Assembly (NCBI GenBank): GCA_937879875.1
Contig: CALFMN010000102.1
Location: forward strand, 5,556-69,555
Direction: 5' to 3'
Origin: an uncultured Chloroflexota bacterium
GTDB lineage: Bacteria > Chloroflexota > Dehalococcoidia > CAUJGQ01
Length of the DNA stretch: 64,000 nt
The stretch's first letter is position 1; each line of letters starts with the position of its first letter. The position numbers and the translations under genes were made by a program. Positions 22,002-31,133 of this stretch are shown piece after piece. The notes under the pieces are model-generated. The model had not been told where the DNA came from, did not search any database, and worked only from the letters and a program-made list of their open reading frames with translations.

Positions 22002-25000
22002 TCAGACCGCCCATTGCTGTGCGAACAGCTCAGCCTGCTGGAGCACGGTGTCCGTCGCCTGTCGCTGGGCGTCGGGCGGGTAGCCGAAGTGGCGCAGCAC
22101 GCGCCGCACCAGCGCTCGCAGCCGCGCCCGCGCATCCTCGCGCACCGTCCAGTCCACGGTGACATTCGCCCGCATCTTCTCTGTCAGTTCGCGCGCGATC
22201 GCCGCGAGCGTGTTGTCGCCCATGACTTCGACGGCGCTCTTGCTCACGCGCAGGGCGTCGTAGAAGGCGAGTTCCGCGTCAGTGAGGCCGAGCTGCTCGC
22301 CGCGCTGCTGCGCCTGCTCCAGCTCCTTTGCAAGCTGGATGAGCTGCTCGATCACCTGCGCCGTCTCGATCGAACGGTTCTGATAGGCGAGCACGGCGCG
22401 CTGCAGCATTTCGCCGAACGAGCGCGCCTGCACGGCATTCCTGGCCGAGCGGGTCTTGATCTCGTCGTTGAGCAGCTTGCGCAGCAGCTCCACGGCGAGG
22501 TTCTTCTGCGGCATGGACTGGATTTCGGCCAGAAACTGGTCGGAGAGGATGGCAAGGTCGGGCTTCGCAAGGCCGGCGGCGGCGAAGATGTCCACCACGC
22601 CCTCGGGCGCGATCGCCTGCGAGATCAGCTGGCGGATGGCGTGGTCCAGCTCGTCCGGCGCCTTGCGTGTCGTGATCGATTCCTTGCCCAGCACGGCCTG
22701 CACGCCCTGGAAGAAGCGCAGGTCGTCGACGATCGCCAGCGCCTCGTCCGCCGGCACGGCCAGCGCGAAGGCTTTGGACAGCTCCGAGACGGCCGCGAGA
22801 AAGCGCCGCTTGCCGTCGGGCTGGCTCAAAACGTGCTCCTGCGCCGCCGGCCAGACGGCGAGCTTTTCGGCCGCCGTGCCGCGCTTCAGGGCGGAGTGGT
22901 CGAAGCCGTGGAAGAAGGCGGAGACGATCTCGTACTTCTCCAGCAGCACGGCCACGGCCTCGCGCTGGTCCACCGTTGGCTGGCCGGCGCCGCCGCCCGC
23001 CGTATACTGTGCCAGCGCCCGCTTGAGCTGGTCGGCGAAGCCCAGGTAGTCCACCACCAGCCCGCCGGGCTTGTCGCGGAAGACGCGGTTGACGCGGGCG
23101 ATCGCCTGCATCAGGGCGTGGCCGCGCATCGGCTTGTCGATGTACATCGTGTGCAGGGCGGGCACGTCGAAGCCGGTGAGCCACATATCGCGCACGATCA
23201 CCAGCTTCAGCGCGTCGTCCGGGTCTTTGAAGCGCCCGGCCAGCGCCTCGCGCGCCGGCTTGTTGCGGATGTGCCGCTGCCAGGCGAGCGGGTCCGCGGC
23301 CGAGCCGGTCATCACGACCTCGATCGCGCCGGCCGCGTCGTCCTCGCTCTGCCAGGCGGGGCGCAGGCGGATGATCGCCTCGTACAGCTCGACGCAGATG
23401 CGCCGGCTCATGCCGACGATCAGCCCCTTGCCCAGCAGCGCCTCCTGCCTCCGCTCGAAGTGCGCGACCAGATCCTCGGCCACCAGCTCCAGCCGCCGGC
23501 CGGCGCCGACCACCGCCTCCAGCGCCGCCCACTTCGTTTTCAGGCGCTCACGGTGCGCCTCCTCCTCGCCCTCGGTCAGCTCCTCGAACTCCTCGTCGAG
23601 GTGCGGTTGCTCGTCCGCGGCAAGCGCCAGCTTCGCCAGCCGGCTCTCGTAGTAGATCGGGACGGTGGTGTGGTCATCGATCGCGCGCTGGATGTCGTAG
23701 ACGCTGATGTAGTCGCCGAAGACGGCGCGGGTGCTGCGGTCCTCTAAATCGATCGGCGTGCCGGTGAAGCCGATGAAGGTCGCGCTGGGCAGGGCGTCGC
23801 GCAGGTGGCGGGCGTAGCCATCCACGAAGTCGTACTGGCTGCGGTGCGCCTCGTCCGCGATCACGACGATGTTGCGGCGGTCGGAGAGCAGCGGGAAGCG
23901 TTCGCCCTTCTCCGCCGGCGAGAATTTTTGGATCGTGGTGAAGATGACGCCGCCGGAGGCGACGCGCAGCAGCTCGCGCAGGTGGTCGCGATCGGCGGCC
24001 TGCGCGGGCGTCTGGCGCAGCAGCTCGGCGCCGCGGGCGAACGTGCCGTAGAGCTGGTCGTCCAGATCGTTGCGGTCGGTGATCACGACGAGCGTGGGGT
24101 TGTGCAGCGCCGGGTGCAGCACGATGCGGCCGGCGTAGAAGAGCATCGTCAGGCTCTTGCCCGACCCCTGCGTGTGCCAGACGACGCCGGCGCGGCGGTC
24201 GCCCGTGACGCGGCTCGCTGCAACCGTCGTCTCCACGGCGTGGCGCACGGCGTGGAACTGGTGGTAGGCGGCGAGGATCTTGTTGAGCCTGGCGCCGTCC
24301 TGCTCGAAGACGACGAAGCCGTGCAGATAGTCGAGCAGGCGTCGCTGCTCGAACAGCCCCTCAATCAGCACCTGCAGGCGCGGCAGCAGCGACGGCGCGA
24401 GGTCTTCGCCGGCGATCGTCTTCCAGGGCACGAACCGCTCCCGGTCTGATGTCATCGAGCCGGCCCGCGCCTCGATGCCGTCGGAGATGACGAGCACCTC
24501 GTTCTGCACGAACAGCGTGGGGATCTCCTGCTTGTAGGTTTGAAGCTGGTTGAAGGCGGCGCCGATCGTGGCGGCTTCGTTGGTGGGGTCCTTCAGCTCG
24601 ATCACGGCGAGCGGCAGGCCGTTGACGAAGACAACGATGTCCGGCCGGCGGTGCTTGCCGTCTTCGATCACGGTGAACTGGTTGACGACGAGCCAGTCGT
24701 TTGCGGTGGGGTTGTCGAAGTCGATCAGGCGCAGGTTGACGCCGCGCACGCGCCCGGACTCATCGCGCACCTCGACGCCGATGCCATCCGCCAGCCGGCG
24801 GTGGAAGCGCTGGTTGTCGGCGACGAGCGATGGCGATTCACGGCGCAGCAGCCGGCGGTACGCTTCCTCCTGCGCTTCGGCCGAGGCCATTGGGTTGAGC
24901 CGGGCGATGGCGGCCCGCAGCCGCGCCGGCAGCACCGCCTCGCCAAATGAGTCGCGCTCCGCCTCCGGCGCACCCGGCGCGATCTCCGGCCCGTGCAGCA

Positions 25001-25073
25001 CGCCGTAGCCCAGCGCCGCGAACCAGCCCAGCGCGGCCTCTTCGACGGTGGACTCGGTGAACGTGACGGACAT
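22002..25073 (-). CDS. hsdR: Type I restriction enzyme, R subunit
   Basis: 1023 aa. HSDR_N-type N-terminus ([18 protein letters not shown]). Helicase motif [16 protein letters not shown] box [10 protein letters not shown], and motifs III-VI (GFTGTP, ...QAIARVNR). Confidence 0.95.
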
Positions 25074-29494: not shown

Positions 29495-31133
29495 AGCCCA
29501 GCCCTGCGAGGTTCTGCCGGATCGCTGCCTCCAGCCGGGCGCTCTCCACGAACTGTTGCTCAAGCTCGGCTGTGAGCCGCGCCAGCTTCTGCTCGAACGG
29601 CTCGCCGTCGTCTTCGGCGTCCTCCGCGCCCACGTAGCGGCCCGGCGTGAGCACATGGCCGTGCTCGGCGATCTCCGCAAGCGTCGCGCTTTTACAAAAG
29701 CCCGGCACGTCGGCGTAGAGCGCGCCGCTGTCGTCGCCACGCCAGGCGTGATAGGCGCCGGCGATGCGGGCGATCTCCGCGTCCGTCAGCTCGCGGTGCG
29801 TGCGGTCGAGCATCGCGCCCAGCCGGCGCGCGTCGATGAACAGCGTCCGGCCGCGCCGCTCGCGTTCGCCCGCGCCGGCCTTGTTGCGGGCCAGGAACCA
29901 GAGGCAGACCGGAATCTGCGTCTGGTAGAAGAGCTGGCCCGGCAGCGCGATCAGGCAGTCCACCAAATCCGCCTCGACCATGCGCCGGCGGATCTCGCCT
30001 TCGCTGCCGCCCGCGCTCATCGAGCCGTTGGCCAGCACAAAGCCCGCCGTGCCGTGCGGCGCAAGGTGGTGAACGAAGTGCTGCACCCAGGCGAAGTTGG
30101 CGTTGCCCGGCGGCGGCGCGCCGTACTGCCAGCGCAGGTCGTCGTGCAGCCGCTCGCCGCCCCAGTTGCTGATGTTGAAGGGCGGATTGGCGAGGATGAA
30201 GTCGGCGCGCAGGTCGCGGAAGCGGTCGTCGTGGAACGTATCGCCCTCGGCGATCTCGGCGGCGATGCCGCGAATCGCGAGGTTCATCTTGCACAGCCGC
30301 CAGGTGGTGTGGTTCAGCTCCTGGCCGTAGATCGCCACCGAGCCGCGCCGGCCGCCGTGCAGCTCCACGAACGCCTCGCTCTGCACGAACATGCCGCCCG
30401 AGCCGCAGCAGGGGTCGTAGACGCGGGCGTTGGCGTGCGGCGCCAGCATCTCCACCAACAGCCGCACGATCGGGCGCGGCGTGTAGAACTCGCCGCCGCT
30501 TCTGCCCTCCGCCGAGGCGAAGCGGCCGAGGAAGTACTCGTAGACGCGGCCGAGGATGTCCTTCGAGCGGTTCTCCGCGTCGCCCAGGCCGATCGTGCTG
30601 ATCAGGTCGATCAGGTCGCCCAGCCGGCGCTTGTCGAGCGCGGGCCGGCCGTAGTCCCTGGGCAGCACGCCGCGCAGTTGGCGGTTCTCGCGCTCGACCG
30701 CGTCCATCGCCGCGTCGATCGTCTGGCCGATGCTCGGCTGCCGCGCCTCGTGCTTGATCCGCTCCCAGCGCGCGTCCCGCGGCACCCAGAAGACGTTCTC
30801 GGATGTGTACTCGTCGCGGTCTTCCGTCACCTCGTAGCGGGCGGTTTCTTCCTTGATGTAGTAGTCGCTTGCCGGGTCGGCCGCCTCGCGGAAGAGATAC
30901 GCCTGGCGCTCCTCGAAGGCGTCGGAGATGTACTTCAAGAAGATCAGGCCGAGCACGACGTGCTTGTACTCGGCGGCGTCCAAATTGCCGCGCAGCGCGT
31001 CAGCCGCGGCCCAGAGCTTCGCCTCGAAGCCGAGGTCGCCCTTCGCCTTCGCGCCGTTGCCGGCCGCGCGGCCCGCCCGCGCCGCGGCGCCCTTGCCGGC
31101 AGCGTCGCCACGCTGCGCCGTGCGTACCCGCAT
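29484..31133 (-). CDS. hsdM: Type I restriction-modification N6-adenine DNA methyltransferase subunit
   Basis: Start at ATG 31133 follows GGAGGG. HsdM_N region ([32 protein letters not shown]), motif [10 protein letters not shown] and motif IV ANPPFN. Confidence 0.95.

Follow-up and report, generated by a model that had tools for sequence, protein, structure and literature searches.

Separately distributed, defence-associated cargo and a conserved convergent small RNA gene between hsdS and hsdR of a Chloroflexota Type I restriction-modification operon

In an uncultured Chloroflexota bacterium of the class Dehalococcoidia (contig CALFMN010000102.1), a Type I restriction-modification (R-M) operon carries about 3.1 kb of additional genes, here called the cargo, between hsdS and hsdR. 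The whole stretch of 64,000 nucleotides that was analysed is referred to as the window, and positions are given in its coordinates. The genes hsdM and hsdS, the four cargo open reading frames (ORFs) and hsdR all lie on the minus strand (table 1). Pfam and PADLOC searches identified a complete Type I operon, with a full-length HsdM, an HsdS containing two target-recognition domains, and an HsdR with nuclease, superfamily 2 helicase and C-terminal domains. An earlier reading made from the letters alone, without database searches (the sequence-only reading), had placed the cargo in the slot occupied by the anticodon nuclease gene prrC in the Escherichia coli prr locus, and had proposed that the four ORFs form one undescribed defence module guarded by the R-M enzyme.

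The layout given by that reading was confirmed throughout; two features absent from it are the 290-nt non-coding spacer between ORF1 and ORF2 and a plus-strand small RNA gene between ORF3 and ORF4. The genes hsdM and hsdS overlap by 11 nt, with the start of hsdS at the ATG at 29494, which was chosen because the Specificity_I match begins at residue 83 of the maximal ORF. The ATG of ORF1 overlaps the TGA of hsdS as ATGA, the GTG of ORF3 at 25936 overlaps the stop codon of ORF2 by 4 nt as GTGA, and 20 nt separate the end of ORF4 from the ATG of hsdR. The dip in GC content across the cargo was also recovered (0.55-0.58 over about 26600-27600 vs 0.68 for the whole window). GC content at third codon positions (GC3) is 0.93 in hsdM and hsdR, 0.90 in ORF2, 0.80 in both ORF3 and ORF4, and 0.69 in ORF1, whereas the two spacers of the cargo block are flat, with about 0.56 at all codon positions. 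We count the GC3 of the cargo genes (0.69-0.90 vs 0.93 in the backbone) as a sign of foreign origin. A Joint Genome Institute metagenome contig (L081) matches the window with identical gene order. No tRNA gene was found in a search across the window.

Table 1. Features of the Type I R-M operon and its cargo, in window coordinates
Feature	Position	Strand	Evidence
hsdM, Type I methyltransferase (549 aa)	29484-31133	(-)	PF12161 HsdM_N + PF02384 N6_Mtase, E 3.5e-107; PADLOC MTase_I E 8e-213; GC3 0.93
hsdS, specificity subunit (440 aa)	28172-29494	(-)	PADLOC Specificity_I E 1.4e-114; PF01420
ORF1, cargo unit 1 (413 aa)	26934-28175	(-)	PF04326 E 8e-12
Non-coding spacer between ORF1 and ORF2 (290 nt)	26644-26933	(-)	GC 0.55, without codon periodicity
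ORF2, cargo unit 2a, DUF3800 (236 aa)	25933-26643	(-)	PF12686 E 2e-12; PDC-M04A
ORF3, cargo unit 2b (163 aa)	25445-25936	(-)	PDC-M04B
Small RNA gene, cargo unit 2c (~65 nt)	25393-25457	(+)	Covariance model, promoter, terminator
Small RNA promoter	25358-25386	(+)	TTGACA 25358-25363, 17-nt spacer, CACAAT 25381-25386
ORF4, cargo unit 3 (74 aa; 70 aa from second ATG)	25094-25318	(-)	Codon periodicity
hsdR, Type I restriction subunit (1023 aa)	22002-25073	(-)	HSDR_N, SWI2_SNF2, T1R_D3-like, T1RH-like_C; PADLOC REase_I 1107.9 bits

The central pair of cargo genes proved to be a catalogued candidate system. ORF2 contains a DUF3800 domain (PF12686, 48.5 bits vs a cut-off of 21) and matches PDC-M04A (E 6.3e-96, residues 1-232 against positions 1-229 of the 232-position profile), and ORF3 matches PDC-M04B over its full length (E 8.7e-55). 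PADLOC calls PDC-M04 where an A and a B match are adjacent, as they are here. The PDC candidates were drawn by 'guilt-by-embedding' from cassettes lying within BREX, DISARM and Type I R-M systems (Payne et al. 2024, bioRxiv 10.1101/2024.01.29.577857), and the pair in the window, adjacent and embedded in a Type I operon, has the very arrangement that defines the candidate. The accessible text of that preprint reports no test of the 145 PDC candidates, and our literature search found no paper naming PDC-M04. The PADLOC entry comprises two proteins, with neither an RNA nor phage P1 mentioned in the accessible text of Payne et al., whereas the pair studied here is linked to both.

Comparison of 82 sequences revealed that six acidic residues of ORF2 (D10, E11, D132, D135, E171 and D179) are invariant. 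They include an N-terminal DE motif (D10, E11) and the last residue of a QxxD motif (Q176, at least 93% conserved, and D179). The DUF3800 effector of type VII retrons, which has an RNase H2-like fold, carries the same DE and QxxD motifs (PMC7736814). With the fold taken from this literature, ORF2 is predicted to be an RNase H-like nuclease.

ORF2 and ORF3 also match PHROG families (phrog_3732, E 6.5e-46, and phrog_16230, E 6e-28, respectively). ORF2 is 50% identical to RlfA of P1-like phage-plasmids, and ORF3 is 39.6% identical to RlfB of P1 and RapB of P7 (tblastn, E 5e-24). The gene order is the same, the two genes are tightly coupled in both places (by the GTGA overlap in the window and by one shared base in P1), and a convergent RNA follows the second gene in each. 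On this similarity, ORF2 and ORF3 are homologues of P1 RlfA and RlfB (RapA and RapB in P7). The settings differ: in P1 the genes follow repL and oriL and are under a C1 operator, whereas in the window a 290-nt spacer precedes them and they are part of an R-M operon in the chromosome.

ORF3 is a basic protein with an isoelectric point of 9.7, and no family in Pfam or NCBIfam matched it. Its structure model (predicted local distance difference test score, pLDDT, 93.9) gave no significant match in the PDB (best E 0.25). Searches of PDB and BFVD returned weak partial matches to RelE/HigB/Cami1-like proteins (probability 0.13-0.28) and one uncharacterised phage homologue. The matches to RelE/HigB, which are ribosome-dependent RNases, and to Cami1 are non-significant and fall on the C-terminal beta-sheet half of the model; the invariant residues of the family are H64, E72, R81, E83 and R84. 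The RlfB-like protein may itself be an RNase, a weak lead given that these fold matches are not significant. They were too weak for a functional assignment of ORF3 by fold, and none was made.

A small RNA gene lies directly after ORF3 on the opposite strand. Together with its promoter (25358-25457, plus strand) it fills the 126-nt gap between ORF3 and ORF4, and its terminator and U-tract overlap the ORF3 stop codon. The RNA consists of a 5' hairpin, whose loop has five invariant positions out of seven, a linker, and a GC-rich terminator hairpin followed by the U-tract. The stretch that begins in the last codons of ORF3 keeps 77-90% DNA identity across phyla, while the ORF3 protein itself reaches only ~45%, and blastn detected it in 76 of 78 downstream regions, P1 included. 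The window promoter, TTGACA-17-CACAAT, has 10 of 12 consensus matches, and 78 loci share a sigma-70-type -35/-10 pair (TTGAc, ~17 nt, ATAaTa) ahead of the RNA. When folded, the window RNA adopts the consensus structure, with a minimum free energy of -32.2 kcal/mol (z -3.5). Own promoter, covarying structure and intrinsic terminator, the hallmarks of a small RNA gene, are thus all present, as known here from sequence alone.

The pairing evidence also identifies the transcribed strand. RNAalifold, applied to the gene-strand MAFFT alignment, returned one hairpin only, and hand-defined pairs with strand-specific counts were used instead. On the gene strand, the non-Watson-Crick cells comprise 115 A.C and 8 G.U, indicating that the strand opposite the genes is the one selected to fold; paired cells amount to 97% on that strand vs 88% on the gene strand. 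In the MAFFT alignment of 56 copies, 98.4% of the cells are paired and eight pairs show double changes (63 such cells), whereas none of 500 shuffles reached the real value and slid controls gave at most 56%. An alignment based on a covariance model, which leans towards the structure of the model, gave 98.5% paired cells and ten covarying pairs, again unmatched by any of 500 shuffles and with slid controls at 55% or lower. The P1 RNA has a longer terminator stem with another sequence, a difference that is covariation in its own right.

The covariance model, seeded with the MAFFT alignment of 56 copies, found exactly one strong match in each of 78 sources, namely the window (78.4 bits, at 25388-25466 on the plus strand), P1 (L108, 4449-4536, 42.2 bits, E 1e-11; about 52,895-52,982 of NC_005856, opposite in strand to rlfB) and 76 of the 80 related loci described below; 22 matches were outside the seed. 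The other four loci end at a contig edge, with a partial match in L024 and none in L028, L059 and L062. No match was obtained in loci without the DUF3800 pair.

An element at the 3' end of a cassette that contains inverted repeats might instead be a bidirectional terminator or a DNA site, for instance a recombination site for cassette mobility, and the second hairpin could indeed terminate the ORF3 transcript too. Such an element would not account for an inward-pointing -35/-10 pair kept with correct spacing in 78 loci, nor for the excess of A.C over G.U cells, which points to folding of the opposite strand. The 5' hairpin with its largely invariant loop would be superfluous in a terminator, and the sequence is unlike the integron attC R' consensus GTTRRRY. 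We regard this interpretation as very improbable and treat the element as an RNA gene.

The RNA has relatives in kind, if not in sequence. Eleven unrelated RNA motifs, several of them with terminators, have been described next to DUF3800 genes in either orientation (Weinberg et al. 2017, PMC5737381). Rfam holds DUF3800-associated families; no Rfam 15 family reached its gathering score on either strand in the window or in eight related loci, and a 161-nt search at E up to 10 returned no DUF3800 family. Compared through these families, the RNA appears to be a further DUF3800-associated class. With the DUF3800-I to -XI motifs and type VII retrons it shares a DUF3800 gene accompanied by a dedicated small structured nucleic acid, an intrinsic terminator at the end, and a position that may be on either strand. 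It differs from the former in that none of the Rfam 15 families matches it, and from the latter in that the module in the window has no reverse transcriptase.

Similarities to toxin-antitoxin loci were also considered. As in ToxIN and AbiQ (type III), a nuclease gene goes together with a small RNA, which is predicted here from its promoter to be strongly expressed, and as in the type I txpA/RatA locus the two transcripts overlap convergently at their 3' ends. In ToxIN-like loci, however, tandem antitoxin repeats lie upstream of the endoribonuclease gene, whereas the window RNA is single, downstream and convergent. It differs from both types in having two protein partners, an mRNA overlap limited to the terminator, and no small hydrophobic toxin. 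Two candidate modes of action were rejected. Trans-antisense pairing with the ribosome-binding region of the DUF3800 gene gave a duplex of -16.9 kcal/mol vs -16.2 kcal/mol for shuffled sequences. An AAGGAG stretch was discarded as a Shine-Dalgarno mimic since P1 and L070 have another base in place of its G yet keep the pairing, indicating that this G is a stem constraint.

To describe the distribution of the pair, relatives of ORF2 were collected in a scan of one genome per species, and the best 80 of the 320 found, which are 60-71% identical, were taken as the set of related loci. Their phyla include Planctomycetota, Chloroflexota, Acidobacteriota, Desulfobacterota, Gammaproteobacteria, Nitrospirota and Chlorobiota, and such high identity across many phyla suggests horizontal spread of the pair. 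ORF3 directly follows the DUF3800 gene in 76 of the 80 loci (tblastn), and an iterated hidden Markov model (HMM) gave 82 ORF3-family matches across them. By contrast, ORF1 and ORF4 had no match in any of the 80 loci, and the single four-gene module of the sequence-only reading does not hold.

Type I genes in the 80 loci were counted with local iterated HMMs. In 16 of the 31 loci flanked by 5 kb or more on each side, the pair has hsdS immediately upstream or hsdR downstream; nine of these 16 follow the order M-S-pair-R and six the order R-M-S-pair. With at least 2 kb upstream required (n = 61), hsdS lies directly upstream in 24 loci. The ATG of the DUF3800 gene overlaps the hsdS stop codon in six loci (L045, L046, L049, L050, L071 and L075), in each of which the end of the upstream ORF lies 3 nt beyond the DUF3800 start. 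A random gene would lie directly after hsdS in an estimated far below 1% of cases.

At loci without Type I adjacency, nine large upstream neighbours were scanned, and five of them had PADLOC matches: a Type III restriction endonuclease, a Type III methyltransferase, a Type IIG R-M protein, a PD-T4-6-like kinase and a SIR2 protein. In one locus (L068, 6642-14416), a Type III methyltransferase (E 2e-156) is found on one side of the pair and its RNA, and on the other a 1024-aa protein that weakly matches Type III restriction endonucleases, implying that the cassette embeds in Type III R-M operons too. The DUF3800 pair is therefore strongly associated with R-M genes in general, often directly after hsdS. 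Its neighbours, as well as the PDC-M04 match, agree with the defence association predicted by the sequence-only reading, which had suggested examining the genomic context of homologues. On the other hand, the pair is not tied to Type I enzymes, because it also occurs beside Type III and Type IIG R-M genes, beside other defence genes and in P1.

The first cargo gene belongs to a different family. ORF1 contains an AlbA_2 domain (PF04326, 46.1 bits vs a cut-off of 25.3) with the motif Ex4(E/D)xK in the form E24-GRAL-D29-Y-K31, of which E24 and K31 are invariant in 48 homologues. In the AlphaFold model (pLDDT 89.7), the N-terminal ~190 residues resemble the SAMD9 tRNase (9o0d, Foldseek E 1.4e-5) and SLFN13 (5yd0, E 1.5e-4), with SLFN12, SLFN11, SLFN14 and SLFN5 also retrieved. 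Judged by motif and modelled fold, ORF1 is a prokaryotic Schlafen protein with an intact tRNase motif and an SLFN/SAMD9-like fold. PADLOC gave no match for ORF1. Its C-terminal half (~215-413) is confidently folded in the model and matched nothing in Pfam, NCBIfam or PDB. The family is widespread, with proteins of ~400 aa conserved over their whole length. Between the two domains, ORF1 has an insertion of ~15 residues, DSSVRDYLGDQSAVW (27528-27575, residues ~201-216), which is missing from 47 homologues and coincides with the lowest confidence of the model (mean pLDDT 56 over residues 201-210).

Prokaryotic Schlafens were recently reported to be anti-phage tRNases with fused domains that sense phage proteins, and unannotated fusions make up 17% of them (PMC13056530); the C-terminal domain of ORF1 would belong to this 'unannotated fusions' class. 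The most likely role of ORF1 would be that of a phage-triggered tRNase with its C-terminal domain as the sensor. It shares with described prokaryotic Schlafens (RorSlfn5, EcoSlfn7; PMC13056530) the PF04326 domain, the Ex4(E/D)xK motif, the SLFN/SAMD9-type fold and an extra fused domain, and differs in that this domain has no relative in Pfam or PDB and that the gene is translationally coupled to hsdS. The cargo is thus less novel than the sequence-only reading had supposed, ORF2 and ORF3 being the catalogued PDC-M04 and ORF1 a member of the described family of prokaryotic Schlafen nucleases (PMC13056530). The HMM and structure searches that it had suggested identified ORF1 as a Schlafen protein, ORF2 as DUF3800/PDC-M04A and ORF3 as PDC-M04B, and failed to place the fold of ORF3 or to find a family for ORF4.

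Since a scan of metagenomes for Schlafen homologues gave mostly short contigs, genomic contexts of this family were compared in the window and seven other contigs. Three of these eight contexts lie between hsdS and hsdR (the window, L103 and L114), one (L112) is beside another methyltransferase and a second Schlafen paralogue, and four have no R-M neighbour.

These observations bear on the proposal that the four ORFs are one PrrC-like module, held latent by HsdMSR and released when a phage inhibits restriction. The position is that of prrC, ORF1 is translationally coupled to hsdS, and in related loci the DUF3800 gene often follows hsdS directly or even overlaps its stop codon, all of which this proposal would explain. 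PrrC/EcoprrI and RloC resemble the cargo further in that the Schlafen protein is predicted to attack tRNA. However, the four genes do not travel together, the pair is also found in R-M-S-pair order, beside Type III and Type IIG genes, apart from R-M genes and in P1, and the Schlafen family is outside Type I loci in five of eight contexts. In addition, the convergent RNA gene with its terminator and the 290-nt spacer divide the block, which argues for several transcription units rather than a single transcript from hsdM to hsdR. The sequence-only reading was right that the cargo is neither PrrC nor RloC: none of the four proteins has a Walker A motif ([AG]xxxxGK[ST]) or the ABC-ATPase/P-loop head, PADLOC gave no PrrC match, and the cargo consists of several unrelated units. 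PrrC is almost exclusively embedded in Type I loci according to the accessible text of Payne et al. (bioRxiv 10.1101/2024.01.29.577857), whereas the units in the window are widespread without Type I R-M. A guarding R-M enzyme as a requirement is supported neither by the pair, Type I-adjacent in 16 of 31 loci and present in P1, nor by the Schlafen family, embedded in three of eight contexts, although the cargo may interact with HsdMSR at this particular locus. We consider a PrrC-like module improbable.

A sister locus indicates how the slot is used. In a Dehalococcoidia metagenome-assembled genome (DATGEL010000130.1, L109), hsdR is 87% identical to that of the window in both DNA and protein, and the 3' end of hsdS is 91% identical over 77 nt. 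Homology of the two backbones ends at the hsdS stop codon and resumes at 25077, just upstream of the hsdR ATG. Between these points L109 carries different cargo (589-2164), consisting of three tightly overlapping genes for proteins of 246, 100 and 177 aa that matched nothing in Pfam or PADLOC; it is a candidate for a further uncharacterised embedded system. A closely related backbone with different cargo indicates that the hsdS-hsdR junction is a precise exchange slot. Another locus (L114, 1-9245) contains, in order, hsdM, hsdS, an AbiP2-type reverse transcriptase (PADLOC E 3e-195), a 50-aa ORF, a 290-aa ORF for which no match was found, an ORF1 homologue, and an hsdR that is 61% identical to that of the window. 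With the AbiP2 reverse transcriptase, the Schlafen family here shares the slot with a defence gene that has been validated.

The L109 cargo is also the only place where a relative of ORF4 was found. ORF4 is acidic and shows coding-like periodicity (GC at the three codon positions 0.65/0.52/0.80), and over its C-terminal 48 aa it shares 75% identity with P0242, the second of the three L109 cargo genes. No family in Pfam, PADLOC, NCBIfam or PHROG matched. ORF4 probably encodes a genuine small protein that is particular to this R-M lineage, and it probably shares a transcript with hsdR.

The 290-nt spacer upstream of ORF2 is non-coding, with GC of 0.56/0.54/0.56 at the three codon positions (26644-26933). 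The RNA motifs known next to DUF3800 genes prompted an Rfam search of this spacer, which gave no match, and a known RNA at this place was dropped. Neither blastx nor blastn found similarity between the spacer and the 80 related loci, and a scan of its minus strand for consensus promoters revealed no promoter-like site. As related loci do not share the spacer, we do not postulate an RNA in it. An origin of the spacers as remnants of hsdS or of the L109 cargo was ruled out, as blastx, blastn and tblastx were all empty. The spacer, which is low in GC, contains a tandem direct repeat, CGGCTTATTC x2, at 26799-26818 (minus strand).

Taken together, the stretch between hsdS and hsdR is probably an exchange slot that holds at least three independently mobile units, which would act as second-line defences beside the R-M enzyme, without the need for HsdMSR that characterises PrrC. 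In the second unit, three parts would work together: the RlfA-like DUF3800 nuclease, its basic RlfB-like partner and the convergent ~65-nt RNA. RNA antitoxins, and the retrons and RNAs that partner other DUF3800 proteins, suggest by analogy that the RNA may act as an antitoxin or regulator that binds the nuclease pair or restrains it in some other way. Its loss or titration during infection would then free the nuclease and abort the infection. In loci with only 110-170 nt between the pair and hsdR, this space is taken by the RNA gene and its promoter, implying that hsdR expression in these loci depends either on transcription reading through against the RNA gene or on an overlapping promoter, an arrangement that might couple the module to restriction. 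On a broader and more tentative hypothesis, PDC-M04 pairs in general, from Chloroflexota-type metagenomes to P1, would be three-component RNA-protein systems in which an uncatalogued ~65-nt RNA gates an RNase H-like nuclease until infection; we consider this possible, though well short of probable.

The pair and its RNA could also serve the maintenance or replication of mobile DNA, either as an RNA-controlled toxin-antitoxin addiction cassette by which the island is stabilised, or as an RNase H-like factor that processes RNA-DNA hybrids when mobile elements replicate. The P1 genes are annotated as 'possibly associated with lytic replication' and are located accordingly, after repL and oriL and under the C1 operator. 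The DUF3800 fold is RNase H2-like (PMC7736814), and the high identity across phyla reflects horizontal transfer. A convergent, strongly promoted small RNA is, moreover, typical of toxin-antitoxin loci. However, rlfA and rlfB are dispensable for P1 plaques, being non-essential in a CRISPR interference map of the phage (PMC10695390), and they are replaced in some P1-like plasmids (PMC6906374); chromosomal pairs lie mainly in or beside R-M and defence genes rather than replication genes. We think such a role rather unlikely as the main one, although addiction and abortive infection are not mutually exclusive.

Several points weigh against second-line defence by units of an exchange slot, and against RNA gating in particular. 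Defence by PDC-M04, by RlfA/RlfB and by this Schlafen subfamily is a prediction, and of seven Schlafen systems put to the test only two protected against phage (PMC13056530). The position of the rlf genes in P1, with the C1 operator and repL, fits a lytic or replication role equally well. The antitoxin analogy is loose because the RNA is single-copy, unlike the ToxI repeats, is convergent, and pairs with the DUF3800 start region no better than shuffled controls do. The RlfB-like fold of ORF3, as modelled, yields no functional clue. The census of 80 loci covers the best-scoring of 320 relatives and may misrepresent the whole family, and the background against which R-M adjacency was judged is an estimate rather than a computed value.

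Outside the cargo, the stop region of hsdR overlaps the start of a DUF1800 gene (20446-22014) by 13 nt (22002-22014), so that the R-M operon abuts apparently unrelated genes without a spacer; gene calls on the matching contig L081 place a DUF1501 gene next after the DUF1800 gene. On the other side, divergent from hsdM (32867-33953, plus strand), are genes for a Gp49/HigB-like plus helix-turn-helix (HTH) protein and for an HTH_17 protein, with weak PADLOC mad1 matches. Beyond these genes the GC content drops sharply to 0.51 at ~34200-34800. The region 32867-34800 may mark the boundary of a mobile island.

Looking at cargo inside R-M operons is an established way of finding new defence systems, and the locus as such is therefore unsurprising. 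PDC-M04 as a catalogued candidate and the Schlafen family with its validated members were already known. What is new, as far as sequence comparison goes, is the link to rlfA and rlfB of P1, together with the conserved small RNA and its separate promoter. Tying a PADLOC candidate to these P1 genes provides a genetically tractable E. coli model for the family. The conserved RNA changes what should be cloned, since constructs without the 100 nt downstream of the pair would be missing a component, with toxicity or inactivity as possible consequences. The sister operon, 87% identical and carrying other cargo, documents the hsdS-hsdR junction as a precise cassette-exchange slot. The findings also extend the unexplained link of DUF3800 proteins to structured RNAs, retrons and CRISPR accessory genes. 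If the RNA-gated system is real, it would represent in effect a twelfth class of DUF3800-associated RNA and a new kind of abortive infection, and it would account for two P1 genes left without a function ever since the annotation of that genome.

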